From a virus (taxonomy: Duplodnaviria > Heunggongvirae > Uroviricota > Caudoviricetes): DNA of 7,478 bases. Within the stretch, counting starts at the first letter, position 1. Each line of letters begins with the position of its first letter. Below the pieces are notes generated by a model, which did no database searches, was not told where the DNA came from, and was given only the letters and a program-made list of their open reading frames with translations. Both the position numbers and the translations under genes were made by a program. Below, piece after piece: positions 1 through 7,478 of the stretch. The stretch is from IMG/VR virus record IMGVR_UViG_2548876938_000002, positions 1 to 7,478 of that record; one strand, 5' to 3'.

Positions 1-720
1 ATAAACGAGCTGGTGATGTCGGTGGCGCTGACGTCATATTCCAGACAGCCACGGCGAATAACGTCTTTTGCCTTGAGCACCATTGCGGTTTTCATTTCCG
101 GCGTGTAGCGGATATCGCGCGCGGCGGGATAGAACGAGCGCACGAGCTGGAACACGCCGACACCGAGGCCGGTGGCATCAATACCGATGTATTCGACGTT
201 GTATTTTTCGGTGAGTTTGCGGATGGATTCCGCCTGGGTGGCAAAGTCCATGCCTTTCCACTGATGGCGCTCAAGTATTCTGAATTTGCCACCGGCCACC
301 ACCGGCGGTGCCAGCACCACGCATCCGGCGCTGTCGCCACGGTGTGACGGGTCGTAACCAATCCATACCGGGCGGGAGCCGAACGGATTGGTGGCAAACG
401 GCGCGTAGTCTTCCCATTCTTCCAGCGTGTCGACCATGCAGCGTTGCAGCTCCTCGAACGGGAACACTGACGCCTTGTCGTCAACAAATTCACACATGAA
501 CAGGTTTTTAAAATCGTCGGCGCTGTTTTCGCGTTTGAGCTGCTCAATGTCGAACAGCGTGCAGCCGCCTTTCAGCGCGTCCTCAATGGTGACAATCTGC
601 CGCCACTGGCCGTCCGCACAGAGAAGACCTCCGGCAAGTGCGTTATGACTGACGTCGATTTCCACGCGTTCAGCGGCGCTGGCGCGTCCCCGGTTAAACA
701 GTTCACCGGACCAGAACGGG
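1..720 (-). pseudogene. Phage terminase large subunit, C-terminal (nuclease-domain) fragment; 5'-truncated, 3' end runs off the window start
   Basis: Hand translation of the minus strand (codons aligned to plus positions 3-5, 6-8 ...) gives an open frame from 821 down to position 1 with no stop. It reads ...WIGYDPSHRGDSAGCVVLAPP...KFRILERHQWKGMDFATQAESIRKLTEKYNVEYIGIDATGLGVGVFQLVRSFYPAARDIRYTPEMKTAMVLKAKDVIRRGCLEYDVS..., which resembles terminase large-subunit nuclease-domain motifs. No ATPase (Walker) region lies upstream; the first ATG is at 779 and the residues before ~720 are antisense to the gpI fragment. The ORF track omitted it because no stop lies in the window. Confidence 0.55.
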
Positions 721-732
721 TATCTGATTGAG

Positions 733-1047
733 GTGAGGGAGTGGTGGCAACTCAATGAGGAGCCGGGGACGTTCCGCATCGTTGTTGGCGTGCTTGAGCA
801 GGGTATTACCGAGGAAATGTATCAGGAGCTGGAGCGCCTCGTTGCTGATGCAAAACCGGCGAGCCGCCATCTGACGGGACTGGCTATCAGTTTAAGTACA
901 ACCGGCAACATTTTTGCCGGTGCGGGATGCTATCACGGTGACGCCCTGACGGTTTATCCCTACACCCCGGAGGCCATTATTGTCGGAGGGGATTATTTCC
1001 CGGCCTCGGCCATTCATTTAATTGATAACCTGAGAGTAAACGCATGA
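733..1047 (+). pseudogene. I: Baseplate assembly protein gpI-like, C-terminal fragment (N-terminally truncated)
   Basis: The 104-aa ORF (VREWWQLNEEPGTFRIVVGVLEQGITEEMYQELERLVADAKPASRHLTGL...) matches my memory of the C-terminal half of P2 gpI. It starts at GTG with no ATG; its frame opens only at 649 and the in-frame residues before ~718 look unrelated. Its stop overlaps the tail-fibre start (ATGA at 1044..1047), as at the I-H junction of P2-like phages. Confidence 0.5.
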
Positions 1048-2222
1048 CAGTGAAATACTACGCCATTCTGACTAATCAGGGCGCAGCACGGCTGGCTAAC
1101 GCGACGATGCTCGGCAGTAAGCTGAATCTGACGCAAATGGCCGTTGGTGATGCGAATGGTGTCTTGCCGACACCAGACCCGGCACAGACAAAACTGATTA
1201 ACCAGAAACGCATCGCGCCGCTGAATCTTCTGAGTGTTGACCCGAACAACCAGAGCCAGATTATTGCGGAGCAAATCATCCCTGAGAACGAGGGCGGATT
1301 CTGGATCCGTGAGATTGGGCTTTATGATGATGAAGGCGTACTCATTGCGGTGGCGAACTGCCCGGAAACGTACAAACCGCAGTTGCAGGAAGGCAGTGGT
1401 CGTACCCAGACTATCCGCATGATTCTGGTTGTCACGAATACCGAAGCCATCACGCTGAAAATCGACCCGTCGGTGGTACTGGCGACCCGTAAATACGTGG
1501 ATGATGAAGTCCTGGAATTAAGGCTGTATGTGGATGACCAGATGAGAAACCACATTGTCGCACAGGATCCTCATACCCAGTATGCGCAGAAACATAATCC
1601 GACATTTACCGGAGAACCAAAAGCGCCGACGCCTGCCGCAGGAAATAACACCACGCGGATTGCGACCACTGCGTTTGTACAGGCCGCTATTACCGCTCTG
1701 ATTAACGGCGCGCCAGCCACGCTGGACACACTGAAAGAAATTGCCGCAGCCATTAACAATGACCCGAAATTCAGTACCACCATTAACAATGCGCTGTCAG
1801 GTAAGCAGCCACTGGATGAGACGCTGACTCATTTGAGTGGAAAGGATGTTGCCGGTCTTCTCGCATACCTTGGTTTGGGAGAAGCGGCTAAAAGGAATGT
1901 AGGGACAGGGGCGAATCAGATACCTGATATGGGTAGCTTCACGCTTTCTGTTTCAGGTACTGGATATCAAAAATTACCATCAGGTTTTATTCTTCAGTGG
2001 GGCTCAATCGGCGCTCCAGGCATTGCACAGGATGTAGTAACCCATTTCCCGATTGCATTTCCAAACAGATGTCTGCGTGTTTTGGTCTCACAAGACTACA
2101 CACCAGATAGCGGGGCTGTTGGTTATATTGCCTGTGCAGGTTTTAGTCCCGACCCGGTTAAATTTATATCCAGAGCCAGTACTCCTGGCCTCGGCGCTTC
2201 ATTTTTAGCGTTAGGCTGTTAA
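1044..2222 (+). CDS. H: Tail fibre protein (P2 gpH-like); constant N-terminal part 1044..~1871 fused to the currently expressed variable C-terminal tip 1884..2222
   Basis: The N-terminus ([20 protein letters not shown]...[18 protein letters not shown]...[23 protein letters not shown]...[23 protein letters not shown]) resembles the conserved N-terminal domain of P2 H. The conserved ...[24 protein letters not shown]...YLGLGE motif sits just before the crossover site, and an unrelated tip follows. Confidence 0.85.
1858..1883. other. Left crossover site of the invertible segment (gix/cix/pix/hix-like 26-bp site): TTCTCGCATACC-TT-GGTTTGGGAGAA
   Basis: Read directly from the sequence. It is a 26-bp imperfect dyad with a central TT at 1870..1871, and its right half-site GGTTTGGGAGAA is identical to the inverted half-site at 3693..3704. 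It lies inside the fibre gene at the YLGLGE codons and resembles the hix/gix pattern TTCT..AAACC..GGTTT..A.AA as I recall it. Confidence 0.8.
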
Positions 2223-2243
2223 TTTAGCTATATGGAGTGAAAA

Positions 2244-2684
2244 ATGAATTACATATATTCCGCGACTACAAACTCTTTCTATCCGCTGGAGATGAAAGAG
2301 GATTACACTCAAGCTGACTCATGGCCAGATGATGCTGTTGAAGTTGATGAGCAAGTGTATATTGAGTTTTCCGGATTACCGCCGAAAGGAAAAATCCGTA
2401 TCGCTGGAGAAAATGGTTTTCCTGCATGGTCTGAAATTCCACCACCAACACATGAGGAACAGATTGCTGCAGCCGAACTGGAAAAGCAGCAACTGATTAA
2501 TCAGGCCAACGATTATATGAACAGTAAACAATGGGCTGGTAAAGCGGCTATTGGTCGTCTGAAAGGTGAGGAACTGGCGCAATATAATTTGTGGCTGGAT
2601 TATCTGGACGCACTGGAGCTGGTCGATACTTCCGGTGCGCCAGATATTGAATGGCCTACGCCTCCGGCAGTTCAGGCCAGATGA
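2244..2684 (+). CDS. Tail fibre assembly protein (Tfa, gpG/U-like) paired with the plus-strand tip
   Basis: 146 aa, with GGAG at 2234..2237 ten nt upstream of the ATG. The C-terminus ...QYNLWLDYLDALELVDTSGAPDIEWPTPP is the typical conserved Tfa C-terminal motif. It lies directly downstream of the fibre gene. Confidence 0.85.
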   Translation: MNYIYSATTNSFYPLEMKEDYTQADSWPDDAVEVDEQVYIEFSGLPPKGKIRIAGENGFPAWSEIPPPTHEEQIAAAELEKQQLINQANDYMNSKQWAGKAAIGRLKGEELAQYNLWLDYLDALELVDTSGAPDIEWPTPPAVQAR

Positions 2685-3249
2685 CATCCGGCGCGGTGCT
2701 GGTATCTGTTGCCGTCACCGCGTCAATGTAATCCAGCACAGCGTTAAGCCGGGTTGTTTCTGCCTGCGTCAGTTTCCGCCCGGCCTGTAATTTCAGCTGA
2801 ATCAGACTAATGGAAGCCATTGCTGCATCAATCAGTGACTGGCGCTGTGCTTCTGCCGCTTCTACTGCGGCACTGTGTTGTGCCTCAGTATCTGTCACCC
2901 ATTTCTCACCATCCCATTTATCATATGGCGTTAACGGTGAAAGCGTGACATAACCGTTTTTGATGGCACCGATATAATCCACTGTAACAGCTGCGCCATT
3001 TTCGATTGAGTAAACAGTCTCATTGCGATGGTCCTCTTCATGGCTCCATCCCTTACCTGTAAATACAGCCACTTTTCCCGGAATGTTTTCGCCAGGGTCA
3101 ATACCAGTGGAACAGGCGGGCATACTTACACCAGTATTAATATATTCATCAGACCAGCCCGTATATTCATACGTTACTGCATCATAATAAAAACAACGCA
3201 TATCACCCGGCACTGTAGCCAGTCCATTTTCATCAAAAACAGGTTTCAT
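2656..3249 (-). CDS. Alternative tail fibre assembly protein (Tfa-prime), paired with the minus-strand tip
   Basis: 197 aa ending ...LNAVLDYIDAVTATDTSTAPDVIWPELPEA (Tfa C-terminal motif), with an N-terminal part resembling E. coli prophage TfaE-type chaperones. Its ATG (3249..3247) overlaps the stop of the upstream tip ORF as TAATG, indicating translational coupling. Confidence 0.85.
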   Translation of the reverse strand: MKPVFDENGLATVPGDMRCFYYDAVTYEYTGWSDEYINTGVSMPACSTGIDPGENIPGKVAVFTGKGWSHEEDHRNETVYSIENGAAVTVDYIGAIKNGYVTLSPLTPYDKWDGEKWVTDTEAQHSAAVEAAEAQRQSLIDAAMASISLIQLKLQAGRKLTQAETTRLNAVLDYIDAVTATDTSTAPDVIWPELPEA

Positions 3250-3705
3250 TATTTAGCCCTCACCAGAAAGTTAAATGCAATGTTACGTGGTCTGACGGCA
3301 ATAAAATTAACACCATCTCCTACTGAGTTACTGGTGTACTGAAATCGAGAGAAACCTGGTTGGTGTGCTGATATTCCATCGTAATCAGCAATCGCATGGC
3401 CGGACCCTTCTGGATAATTACCGCCAAATTGCGATAAAGCTGTTGCTGCCTGCCAGCTTAATAATGCTCGCCCACTGTCCGCCCCTCGCCCATCATCCCA
3501 GATACGAATGAAATCACCGCGGGCTTCAGGTAATACCAGCGAAGGAAACACTTTTGCCAGCACAGGGTAATCAGAGGCAGAAAATTTCGCCCCGTTGAAC
3601 TTCAAAAACACCATACTGGACCAGCTATCGATTACAGTATTTGGCATTGCAGCGGACGGCCAGAAGAACGGAACGCCAATAGCTGGAGCACCTTCTCCCA
3701 AACCA
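3249..3705 (-). CDS. Alternative (currently silent) tail fibre C-terminal tip, promoterless and startless, expressed only after inversion as a fusion to the constant part of the fibre gene
   Basis: The minus-strand frame reads ...IFINVGLGEGAPAIGVPFFWPS...FNGAKFSASDYPVLAKVFPSLVLPEARGDFIRIWDDGRGADSGRALLSWQAATALSQFGG...GSGHA...FNFLVRAK. The GLGE codons lie in the crossover site in the same phase as in the plus-strand fibre gene. The C-terminal part resembles the phage tail-collar fibre domain. The ORF-track Met at 3746 lies outside the invertible segment and is probably artefactual. Confidence 0.75.
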
Positions 3706-3718
3706 ACGTTTATGAAAA
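3693..3718. other. Right crossover site of the invertible segment: TTCTCCCAAACC-AA-CGTTTATGAAAA (inverted relative to the left site)
   Basis: Read directly. It is 26 bp with a central AA at 3705..3706 (TT on the other strand), and its half-site TTCTCCCAAACC is the exact reverse complement of GGTTTGGGAGAA in the left site. It lies ~55 bp upstream of the invertase start. Confidence 0.8.
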
Positions 3719-3773
3719 TGCAGAGATAACGGGCAACTGGCATCATCTCCGGTTTTTATTCAGGGGGATGCTC

Positions 3774-4367
3774 ATGCTTATTGGCTATGTACGCGTGTCA
3801 ACAAATGACCAGAACACGGAATTGCAGCGTAACGCGCTGGAGTGCGCAGGATGCGAGCGGATTTTTGAGGATAAAATCAGCGGCACGAAGTCCGACCGAC
3901 CGGGACTGAAAAAACTGCTCAGAACATTATCAGCATGTGACACTCTGGTAGTCTGGAAGCTGGACAGGCTGGGGCGTAGTATGCGGCATCTGGTCATTCT
4001 GGTTGAGGAACTGCGCGAACGCGGCGTTAATTTTCGCAGTCTGACGGATGCTATTGATACCAGCACGCCGATGGGGCGTTTTTTCTTTCATGTGATGGGG
4101 GCCCTGGCTGAAATGGAGCGAGAACTCATTGTCGAGCGGACTCGGGCCGGGCTGGAAGCGGCCAGAGCCAAAGGTCGTATTGGTGGCAGACGTCCTAAAC
4201 TCTCCACGAGTGAGTGGGAGCAGGCCGGGCGTTTGCTGGCTGCAGGGGAGTCACGTCAACGCGTGGCACTGATTTTTGATATTGGTCTGTCCACGCTCTA
4301 TAAAAAATTTCCCTCATCAGCGACAAAGAATAAATTGTGTCATCCCTTAGCCAACCGGGACAAATAG
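3774..4367 (+). CDS. Site-specific DNA invertase, serine recombinase of the Gin/Cin/Pin/Hin family
   Basis: The product MLIGYVRVSTNDQNTELQRNAL...DTLVVWKLDRLGRSMRHLV...RSLTDAIDTSTPMGRFFFHVMGALAEMERELIVERTRAGLEAARAKGRIGGRRPKL...GLSTLYKKF has the catalytic-serine motif (YVRVS), the resolvase/invertase catalytic domain and a C-terminal helix-turn-helix. It is close to the Pin/Gin sequences as I recall them. I prefer the ATG at 3774 (AGGGGGA at 3762..3768, 5-nt spacer) to the ORF-track start at 3768. Confidence 0.9.
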   Translation: MLIGYVRVSTNDQNTELQRNALECAGCERIFEDKISGTKSDRPGLKKLLRTLSACDTLVVWKLDRLGRSMRHLVILVEELRERGVNFRSLTDAIDTSTPMGRFFFHVMGALAEMERELIVERTRAGLEAARAKGRIGGRRPKLSTSEWEQAGRLLAAGESRQRVALIFDIGLSTLYKKFPSSATKNKLCHPLANRDK

Positions 4368-4426
4368 CCTGACATCTCCGGCACAACTGAAAATATCACT
4401 CACCCATTAACCACGGAGTTAAACGG

Positions 4427-5298
4427 ATGAGTGACTATCATCACGGCGTGCAGGTGCTGGAGATTAACGACGGCACCCGCGTCATTTCCACCGTATCCAC
4501 TGCCATTGTCGGCATGGTCTGCACGGCCAGCGATGCGGATGCGGAAACCTTCCCCCTCAATAAACCGGTGCTGATTACCAATGTGCAGAGCGCAATTGCA
4601 AAGGCCGGTAAAAAAGGCACGCTGGCGGCATCGTTGCAGGCCATCGCCGACCAGTCAAAACCGGTCACCGTTGTTGTGCGTGTGGAAGACGGCACCGGCG
4701 ACGACGAGGAAACGAAACTTGCGCAGACCGTTTCCAATATCATCGGCACCACCGACGAAAACGGTCAGTACACCGGACTGAAAGCCCTGCTGGCGGCAGA
4801 GTCGGTACCGGCATCAGCGCCTCTGTATTCTGGGATTTGCAGGAGTCCGGCACCGATGCTGACCTGCTTAACGAGTCAGGCGTCACTACGCTGATTCGCC
4901 GCGACGGTTTCCGCTTCTGGGGTAACCGTACCTGCTCCGATGACCCGCTGTTCCTCTTTGAAAACTACACCCGCACCGCGCAGGTGCTGGCCGACACGAT
5001 GGCTGAGGCGCACATGTGGGCAGTGGACAAGCCCATCACCGCAACGCTGATTCGCGACATCGTTGACGGCATTAATGCCAAATTCCGTGAGCTGAAAACA
5101 AACGGCTATATCGTGGATGCGACCTGCTGGTTCAGCGAAGAATCCAACGATGCGGAAACCCTCAAGGCCGGAAAACTGTATATCGACTACGACTATACAC
5201 CGGTGACCGAGCAGGAAGTCGCCGCGCTGGAACTGCCTGACCTTGTGGCGCTGGCCGGTAAGGTGGTCGGTTTTTTGTCGCCGAACTCGGTGCAGTGA
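4427..5298 (+). pseudogene. FI: Tail sheath gene (P2 FI-like) remnant: frame change near 4808 and 3' end fused near 5206 to the C-terminal codons of a tail-chaperone (gpE-like) frame
   Basis: Two overlapping ORFs in different frames (4427..4894 frame 2; 4837..5298 frame 1) both read as sheath protein ([54 protein letters not shown]... and ...[40 protein letters not shown]...[11 protein letters not shown]). Together they span ~290 codons, whereas P2-type sheaths are ~390 aa. GGAG at 4415..4418 precedes the ATG. The last ~30 codons ([30 protein letters not shown]) match my memory of the gpE C-terminus and contain the slippery heptamer. Confidence 0.65.
5271..5277 (+). promoter_or_regulatory. 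Programmed -1 frameshift slippery heptamer T_TTT_TTG of the tail-chaperone E/E' module (relic)
   Basis: TTTTTTG sits in X_XXY_YYZ phase relative to the frame ending at 5298 (codons ttt ttg = F L), about 7 codons before that stop. The -1 frame is open from 5241 to 5573 and reads [29 protein letters not shown]... This is the classic position for the tail assembly chaperone frameshift (lambda G/GT, P2 E/E+E'). Confidence 0.5.
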
Positions 5299-5326
5299 CG
5301 TTTCCGAAAAATCTCTCGGTCGATGA

Positions 5327-7177
5327 CCTGATGGCGGATGTGGCAGTGATATTTCACTGCCCGGTTATGAGTTTGCGCAGAAAAACTCAGAATTGCAGGC
5401 TGTGCTCGGTGTGGCAAAAGACTCCGCCGAAATGGCTGCACTACGCAAGCAGGCGCGCCAGCTCGGCGACAATACCGCCGCCTCGGCAGATGATGCAGCC
5501 GGTGCGCAGATTATTATTGCGAAAGCCGGTGGGGATGTTGATGCCATTCAGGCGGCAACGCCGGTCACGCTGAATATGGCGCTGGCGAACCGCCGCACGA
5601 TGGAAGAAAACGCCGCCCTGCTGATGGGGATGAAATCCGCCTTTCAGCTTTCAAACGATAAGGTCGCTCATATCGGGGATGTTCTCTCCATGACGATGAA
5701 CAAAACCGCCGCCGATTTTGACGGCATGAGCGATGCGCTGACCTATGCCGCACCTGTGGCAAAAAATGCCGGTGTCAGCATTGAAGAAACTGCCGCAATG
5801 GTCGGGGTACTGCATGATGCAAAAATTACCGGTTCAATGGCGGGGACGGGAAGCCGTGCCGTGTTAAGCCGCCTGCAGGCACCGACGGGAAAAGCATGGG
5901 ATGCACTCAAAGAGCTTGGTGTGAAAACCTCAGACAGTAAGGGAAACACCCGACCAGTATTTACCATTCTGAAAGAAATGCAGGCCAGTTTTGAGAAAAA
6001 CCGGCTCGGTACTGCCCAGCAGGCTGAATACATGAAAACCATTTTCGGGGAGGAGGCCAGTTCAGCCGCCGCCGTGCTGATGACTGCCGCCTCAACCGGA
6101 AAGCTGGACAAACTGACCGCTGCGTTTAAAGCCTCAGACGGAAAGACCGCAGAGCTGGTAAATATCATGCAGGACAACCTCGGCGGTGACTTTAAGGAGT
6201 TTCAGTCCGCTTATGAGGCGGTGGGGACTGACCTGTTTGACCAGCAGGAAGGCGCACTGCGTAAGCTCACGCAGACGGCCACAAAGTATGTGTTAAAACT
6301 CGACGGCTGGATCCAGAAAAACAAATCACTGGCGTCAACCATCGGCATCATTGCCGGTGGCGCACTGGCGCTTACTGGCATCATCGGTGCCATTGGTCTT
6401 GTAGCCTGGCCGGTTATCACCGGCATCAATGCCATCATCGCGGCAGCAGGCGCAATGGGGGCAATCTTCACGACGGTTGGCAGTGCTGTTATGACCGCCA
6501 TCGGGGCGATTAGCTGGCCGGTTGTGGCTGTGGTGGCCGCCATTGTCGCCGGGGTGTTGCTTATCCGTAAATACTGGGAGCCTGTCAGCGCATTCTTTAG
6601 CGGTGTGGTTGAAGGGCTGAAAACGGCATTTGCGCCGGTGGGAGAACTGTTCACGCCACTGAAACCGGTGTTCGACTGGCTGGGTGAAAAGTTACAGGCC
6701 GCGTGGCAGTGGTTTAAAAACCTGATTGCCCCGGTCAAAGCCACCCAGGACACCCTGAACCGTTGCCGTGACACGGGCGTCATTTTCGGGCAGGCACTGG
6801 CTGACGCGCTGATGTTGCCGCTTAATGCGTTCAACAAACTGCGCAGCGGCATTGACTGGGTACTGGAAAAGCTCGGGGTCATCAACAAAGAGTCAGACAC
6901 ACTTGACCAGACCGCCGCCAGAACTCATGCCGCCACGTATGGCACCGGTGGTTATATTCCGGCGACCAGCTCTTATGCAGGCTATCAGGCTTATCAGCCG
7001 GTCACGGCACCGGCTGGCCGCTCTTATGTGGACCAGAGTAAAAACGAATATCACATCAGTCTGACGGGCGGTACTGCACCGGGGACTCAGCTCGACCGCC
7101 AGTTACAGGATGCGCTCGAAAAATACGAGCGGGATAAACGTGCGCGCGCCCGTGCCAGCATGATGCATGACGGTTAA
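5327..7177 (+). pseudogene. T: Tail tape-measure protein (gpT-like), missing its start and N-terminal region
   Basis: The frame is open from 5327 to the TAA at 7175..7177. The product has tape-measure features: the core motif region ...DALTYAAPVAKNAGVSIEETAAMVGVLHDAKITGSMAGTGSRAVLSRL..., a long Gly/Ala/Ile-rich hydrophobic segment (IGIIAGGALALTGIIGAIGLVAWPVITG...) and a C-terminal domain. No ATG with a ribosome-binding site exists: the ORF track started at TTG 5393 and the first in-frame ATG at 5432 has no Shine-Dalgarno. The upstream E-prime frame is a different frame. Confidence 0.65.
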
Positions 7178-7191
7178 GGAGGTGACTAAAA

Positions 7192-7478
7192 ATGATGCTC
7201 GCGTTAGGTATGTTTGTTTTTATGCGCCAGACGCTGCCACACCAGACCATGCAGCGTGAATCAGATTATCGCTGGCCGTCAAATTCCCGTATCGGTAAAC
7301 GGGATGCCTTTCAGTTTCTCGGTGTGGGTGAGGAAAACATTACGCTTGCCGGTGTGCTTTATCCCGAACTGACCGGCGGCAAGCTGACGATGACCACGCT
7401 CAGGCTGATGGCAGAGGAAGGTCGGGCGTGGCCGTTGCTGGATGGCACCGGCATGATTTACGGCATGTATGTCATCAG
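7192..7478 (+). CDS. U: Tail protein gpU-like (5' part; continues beyond the window end)
   Basis: AAGGAGGTGA at 7176..7185 precedes ATGATG at 7192. Hand translation gives MMLALGMFVFMRQTLPHQTMQRESDYRWPSNSRIGKRDAFQFLGVGEENITLAGVLYPELTGGKLTMTTLRLMAEEGRAWPLLDGTGMIYGMYVI..., open to the window edge, which resembles P2 gpU. It follows T as in the P2 F-E-T-U-D operon. It is not in the ORF track because no stop lies in the window. Confidence 0.8.
   Translation, partial: MMLALGMFVFMRQTLPHQTMQRESDYRWPSNSRIGKRDAFQFLGVGEENITLAGVLYPELTGGKLTMTTLRLMAEEGRAWPLLDGTGMIYGMYVI

Follow-up and report, generated by a model that had tools for sequence, protein, structure and literature searches.

A deletion scar in the tail sheath gene of a defective P2-like prophage remnant

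Introduction

Cryptic remnants of P2-like prophages occur in Escherichia coli, as exemplified by ogrK-yegZ, which adjoins yegQ in strain K-12. In phage P2 itself the tail sheath protein gpFI (NP_046778.1), which matches the Pfam entries PF22671, PF04984 and PF17482, is encoded downstream of the tail-fibre region and upstream of the FII-E-T-U genes. Inactivation of bacterial genes by deletion has been described more generally: among bacterial pseudogenes, 43% of small deletions were found to lie between microhomologies of 2-11 nt (PMC6054270), and in a passage of the same paper the authors compare these microhomology deletions to the alternative end-joining of E. coli, citing Chayot et al. 2010. 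A preprint also describes hotspots of immune systems in P2-like prophages (bioRxiv 10.1101/2021.01.21.427644).

Here we describe a stretch of DNA of 7,478 nt, hereafter the window. It is a defective P2-like prophage remnant, a well-known kind of element, and its sheath gene is a deletion scar, a pseudogenised homologue of P2 FI. Like the known P2-like remnants, it is a P2-family prophage reduced by deletion in which fragments of late genes are left. It differs from them in that its junctions are unique, none being present in 5,426 complete E. coli genomes, among them K-12 derivatives such as DH5alpha. The four junctions are private to this record, and nothing about them is new in kind.

The contig and its intact relatives

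An exact-protein match identifies the window as the entire draft contig AIAO01000156.1 (7,478 nt) of assembly GCA_000446325.2. All parts of it share 96-100% DNA identity with P2-like (Peduovirus) phages and E. coli prophages. The gene order (P / ... I-H-tfa / FI-FII-E-T-U), together with the high identity to P2-family genomes, places it in the P2-like (Peduovirus) group. Four intact references were used for the analysis of junctions, namely P2 (L001), phage S164 (L002/L006) and two E. coli prophages, L007 and L014. The segments that have been kept are collinear with all four at 96-100% identity, and their order is held across all four deletions discussed below.

The window opens with an internal fragment of the P2-like gene P for the terminase large subunit (1-722, minus strand), which runs off the start of the contig. 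This fragment is 97-98% identical to Peduovirus terminase ATPase genes, aligning with positions 923-1644 of L007 and 1398-2119 of S164. It is followed by a 3' fragment of the baseplate gene I (723-1047, plus strand), which aligns to the end of gene I in L007 (11720-12331), S164 and L014. Residue-identical copies of the tail-fibre protein (1044-2222) are found on other contigs, with sources given as E. coli or Enterobacteriaceae, and at all ten of the ten loci encoding the identical protein the 396-aa sheath, the tube, E and the 815-aa T genes are intact. At both ends (window 1 and 7478) the contig breaks off within a phage gene, terminase P on one side and tail gene U on the other; a second related prophage or a repeat may have broken the assembly at these points.

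The full set of morphogenesis genes expected of a functional phage is lacking. All genes between P and I, which in intact relatives comprise the head, lysis and most baseplate genes, are absent, as is the tube gene FII, and each of FI, E/E' and T is truncated. The reading frames of H, tfa, the invertase and T are kept open. We infer that the remnant is unable to make a tail or a particle and that the sheath fragments are functionless.

The closest relative is L014, an intact P2-like prophage on contig JAVGNM010000008.1 of assembly GCA_036294505.1 that is about 99.9% identical to the window apart from the deletions. Over the approximately 6.5 kb that are shared it shows only 0-1 mismatches per stretch outside the sheath piece considered later, and it has an identical tail-fibre protein and the same invertible segment and invertase. 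It differs from the window in retaining all of the 11,389 nt that are missing there, so that its sheath, tube, E/E' and tape-measure genes are intact. In detail, the window has 0 mismatches to L014 over 538-4807 and over 5204-5359, and 1 mismatch over 5358-7478, while across the 6.9 kb compared indels are seen at the junctions only. This near-perfect, indel-free match indicates that the consensus of the window is accurate, and hence that a stray homopolymer error falling exactly at the sheath junction is unlikely. The same comparison suggests that the deletions are recent, since the kept DNA has scarcely diverged from that of an intact relative and shows no inactivating change besides them. 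The single difference beyond 5358 is a G-to-T change at 7187, in the T-U spacer, and is absent from all ten references compared there.

The sheath gene lesion

The original prediction placed a frame switch at about 4808 within the sheath gene and proposed that some 100 codons were missing there. Protein and DNA alignments agree with both statements. Codons 1-127 of FI, with an intact start codon, occupy 4427-4807 (plus strand, frame 2); they align in BLASTP with residues 1-127 of P2 FI and have 0 mismatches to L014. The sequence then continues in frame 1 of the same strand with FI nt 710-1107 (4808-5205), encoding residues 237-369 at 97% identity (133/137 identical in BLASTP to P2 FI 237-373). 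The frame-2 ORF (4427-4894, 155 aa) therefore consists of FI 1-127, ending ...LLAAESV, and an out-of-frame tail of 28 unrelated codons and a stop at 4808-4894 (plus strand). The frame-1 piece is without a proper start codon, the only candidate in the ORF list being an internal TTG at 4837.

At the junction between the two pieces, here called J1 (4806-4807), FI nt 381 is joined to FI nt 710. The loss of nt 382-709 amounts to 328 nt, that is 109 codons (residues 128-236) plus one base, and for this reason the remainder of the gene, 237-369, lies in another frame. The same breakpoints are obtained from DNA alignments to P2, S164, L007 and L014. The prediction had also allowed for the opposite outcome, in which the two ORFs would prove collinear with an intact sheath gene apart from a single-base indel; on alignment to the intact sheath they did not.

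Each half of the sheath gene is 96-100% identical in DNA to intact sheath genes, and in ten relatives the gene is an uninterrupted one of 396 aa, which together exclude a chance pattern of ORFs. A programmed translational frameshift was considered and rejected, given that 109 codons are absent between the two frames. Compared with P2 gpFI, the regions 1-127 and 237-369 are collinear and 91-97% identical, and the gene keeps the place that it has in P2, between the tail-fibre region and the FII-E-T-U position. In contrast to P2 gpFI, however, the remnant has no counterpart of residues 128-236 and 370-396, its two halves are read in different frames, and the second of them runs on into the tail of gpE.

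The damage is equally visible at the level of domains. The PF22671 (Gp18_domIII_N) region is present at residues 26-86 of the 155-aa ORF (E = 3.7e-14). Of PF04984, the central sheath domain (residues 113-279 of P2 FI), about two thirds is lost; what is left corresponds to profile positions 135-168 in the other frame and scores 21.6 bits against a gathering cut-off of 31.4. Instead of a single ORF of approximately 396 aa that includes the C-terminal PF17482, there are the 155-aa ORF and the frame-1 remnant. In the latter the PF17482 match is partial, covering profile positions 1-95 of 104, and the final 27 residues of FI are gone. For annotation this means that the ORFs 4427-4894 and 4837-5298 are fragments of one sheath pseudogene, the second of them fused to the gpE tail, and that the contig should be labelled a defective P2-like remnant.

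Three further deletions

Relative to intact prophages, the window contains four collinear deletions in the same orientation, with no inserted DNA at any of the junctions. The largest is at J0 (721-722), where gene P is joined to the 3' part of gene I with TA shared between the two sides; the loss is 9,494 nt in comparison with L014 and 10,362 nt in comparison with L007.

The two remaining junctions lie downstream of J1. At J2 (5204-5205) FI nt 1107 is joined to E nt 184 with the loss of 854 nt and with TG shared. This removes the last 27 codons of FI, the whole tube gene FII and codons 1-61 of E. The G that gives the 2-nt match is present in 10 of 12 references; with the L014 allele at FI nt 1107 in the parent, only T, 1 nt, would be shared. 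By chance, J2 fuses FI in frame to residues 62-91 of gpE. These codons and their stop occupy 5206-5298 (plus strand) and are 30/31 identical to P2 gpE 61-91. The 153-aa ORF at 4837-5298 reported by the gene caller is thus a sheath-gpE chimera starting at the internal TTG, and it owes its existence as an ORF to the in-frame fusion at J2.

Downstream of the E stop, a short piece of the E' extension (5299-5359, plus strand) aligns with positions 8135-8195 of P2, within the E+E' CDS at 7859-8286. It ends at J3 (5358-5359), where the E' region is joined to T nt 631, again with TG shared and with 713 nt lost. This takes away the end of E' and, from T, codons 1-210, among them the start. The remainder of the tape-measure gene, codons 211-815 and the stop (5360-7177, plus strand; Pfam PF10145), corresponds to positions 16212-18029 of L014 with no mismatch within the gene. 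This T remnant is out of frame with E'.

Origin of the deletions

The junction matches are TA, TA, TG and TG at J0 to J3, exactly 2 nt at each when compared with L007, and in every case one copy is kept. When 200,000 deletions matching these in size were simulated in the intact prophage, the probability that a junction would share 2 nt or more was 0.164, which for all four junctions gives 7e-4. The pattern found is that of microhomology deletion: a short identity at both breakpoints, one copy left and no inserted bases. Probably these are recent microhomology-mediated illegitimate deletions in a decaying prophage. They could have arisen by illegitimate recombination at microhomology, either through template switching during replication or through the joining of resected broken ends, the latter by RecA-independent alternative end-joining of the type seen in E. 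coli, which would be expected to depend on RecBCD and LigA. The events would be recent, with point decay not yet accumulated in the remnant. Little can be concluded about a particular pathway from a match of 2 nt, and the pathway we infer is read back from the scar it left. The 2-nt matches, the single copy kept and the lack of filler DNA resemble the deletions described in bacterial pseudogenes and those of E. coli alternative end-joining (PMC6054270), but that study dealt with small indels, and the deletions here, at 0.3-9.5 kb, exceed them in size.

The sequence around J1 deserves closer attention, for the original prediction had attributed this junction to a deletion between short direct repeats accompanied by the loss of one base. 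The junction string that it quoted, gagtcggtaccggcatcagc, is indeed present at 4798-4817. In intact genes the left breakpoint falls between GAGTCGGTA and ACCGGTGTT and the right one between AACGGTGTTA and CCGGCATC, while the window reads GAGTCGGTACCGGCATC across J1; the only bases that can be assigned to either side are TA (4806-4807). The repeat was nearly right: the intact gene has an imperfect one, GTAACCGG(T) on the left and GTTACCGG(C) on the right, matching at 7 of 8 positions, and what remains in the window, GTACCGGC, falls one base short of both copies. Clean deletion between the repeats would remove 327 nt and leave the gene in frame. On a two-step account, a 327-bp in-frame slippage between GTAACCGG and GTTACCGG, with GTAACCGGC or GTTACCGGC as the intermediate, would have been followed by the loss of one base from an AA/TT run, whether by real mutation or by homopolymer miscall. 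That the 7/8 repeat occurs at both breakpoints in every intact reference, and that the product is exactly one base short of the repeat-mediated one, fit this sequence of events. It nevertheless requires two events where one is enough, no further indel is found in 6.9 kb compared with L014, and J0, J2 and J3 show the same simple 2-nt pattern. With that pattern recurring elsewhere in the contig, J1 can be accounted for without a base lost on its own, and one deletion of 328 nt across TA describes it more economically. The two-step account is improbable.

The constancy of the 2-nt match also brings to mind the serine invertase encoded by the prophage (3768-4367). Serine recombinases exchange strands at a 2-bp core, and if the enzyme had recombined pseudo crossover sites the overlap of exactly 2 nt common to each of the four junctions would be explained; both the intact gene, with Resolvase and HTH_7 domains, and its native 26-bp sites are present in the window. 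To the breakpoints themselves, however, this idea fits poorly. All eight are unlike the native half-sites, with 0-4/10 consensus matches per half-site, and when scored with a matrix built from the four native half-sites they fall between the 36th and the 90th percentile of prophage positions, which is background. The native core, moreover, is TT/AA rather than TA or TG. Pseudo-site recombination by the invertase is therefore rejected for want of similarity to the half-sites, and we regard it as scarcely credible.

If microhomology-mediated deletion is accepted, it may still be asked whether the four deletions were separate steps of decay or one multi-breakpoint event in a freshly acquired prophage. 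A single event is hinted at by the collinearity and shared orientation of the deletions, by the same 2-nt, T-purine junction at each, by the clustering of three of them within 2.4 kb of intact phage and by the near absence of point divergence. A further hint is given by the piece between J1 and J2, the polymorphisms of which differ in pattern and might have been copied in from another template (see below). Such an event might have taken the form of serial template switching in one episode of replication or repair, of the MMBIR/FoSTeS kind, or of nuclease fragmentation of the prophage followed by end-joining. We consider a single origin conceivable, if doubtful. In either case, a near mutation-free prophage with four microhomology deletions offers a clean case of fast inactivation by deletion rather than by point mutation, in which an intact and near-identical relative allows direct comparison; the case would gain weight if all four deletions arose together.

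A polymorphic patch between two junctions

Of the four positions at which the window mismatches L014, three (4914, 4938 and 5022) lie in the piece between J1 and J2 (4808-5205, 396 nt). At least three would fall inside this piece with a probability of 7e-4. An additional difference from L014 lies at 5205, inside the J2 match. All of the differences in 4808-5205 are synonymous third-position changes in the FI frame. The alleles 4914C and 5205G are common in other phages and 4938C is found in E. coli strain 4/1-1, while 5022A is absent from all 14 of the other references. Among complete E. coli genomes, identity to the segment does not exceed 99.2%.

Their synonymous nature and the occurrence of 4914C, 4938C and 5205G in other phages argue that the differences were inherited and are not errors. 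On the same grounds, error-prone synthesis, repair mutation and sequencing error were each rejected as their source. They are thus best seen as inherited polymorphism from a time when the sheath gene still functioned, most simply a mosaic patch carried by the parent. Alternatively, the piece could possibly have been copied from a second P2-like prophage.

Real DNA or assembly artefact

The four junctions were sought widely beyond the contig. Neither the 5,426 complete E. coli genomes nor a set of 50,697 phage records contained the 60-nt sequences that span them. A 22-mer across J1 was not found in IMG/VR or in the JGI metagenomes (where J1 alone was tried), nor were the J0, J2 and J3 patterns found in IMG/VR. 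A 20-mer across J1 had one match among the GTDB species genomes, in an unrelated hot-spring bin (Bacterium HR29), where about one match is expected by chance (596 Gb, two strands). In an exact-protein search, the three ORF products that depend on the junctions matched no contig but this one. As the junctions occur in one draft contig only, their presence in the cell is without independent confirmation; we nevertheless consider it probable that the deletions are real.

The competing explanation is an assembly or library artefact, in which the strain would contain an intact P2-like prophage, or perhaps two, and the junctions would have been created by chimeric reads or when contigs were wrongly joined or their gaps closed. 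The contig, with its short length of 7,478 nt, forms the whole record and ends inside phage genes; its junction sequences and junction-dependent proteins are unique to it; and the polymorphism of 4808-5205 in comparison with L014 is unlike that of its neighbours, as if another copy had contributed. Each of these would be in keeping with an artefact. Graph and overlap assemblers, however, mis-join at long shared sequences and not at 2-nt matches, and four random joins with a match of at least 2 nt would be rare (7e-4). Furthermore, the remaining consensus is essentially error-free, with no indels, and a skip of 9.5 kb within a contig requires reads that span it. An artefact is on balance unlikely.

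The invertible segment and other features of the relatives

Upstream of the sheath gene, the window contains an invertible tail-fibre segment of the Cin/Pin/Gin type (1884-3692) between two inverted 26-bp crossover sites. The first of these, at 1858-1883, reads TTCTCGCATACC-TT-GGTTTGGGAGAA and the second, at 3693-3718, reads TTCTCCCAAACC-AA-CGTTTATGAAAA; the intact invertase gene adjoins the segment. The segment carries the variable 3' end of H, two tail-fibre assembly genes and, on the minus strand, an alternative 3' end of H (3249-3746). Its arrangement and orientation are the same in the intact relatives L012-L016.

Two observations concern the relatives themselves. Between genes S and V, in the region lost from the window by J0, L013 and L015 each have a gene of 508 aa (5899-7425 in both) with weak or faint Pfam hits to AAA and TIR domains; the same slot holds a 261-aa gene in other relatives and Orf30 in P2. 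In the homologous prophage of E. coli FDAARGOS_1058 (L018), the invertase gene (1640-2232) is annotated as frameshifted, an instance of unrelated decay in the same phage family.
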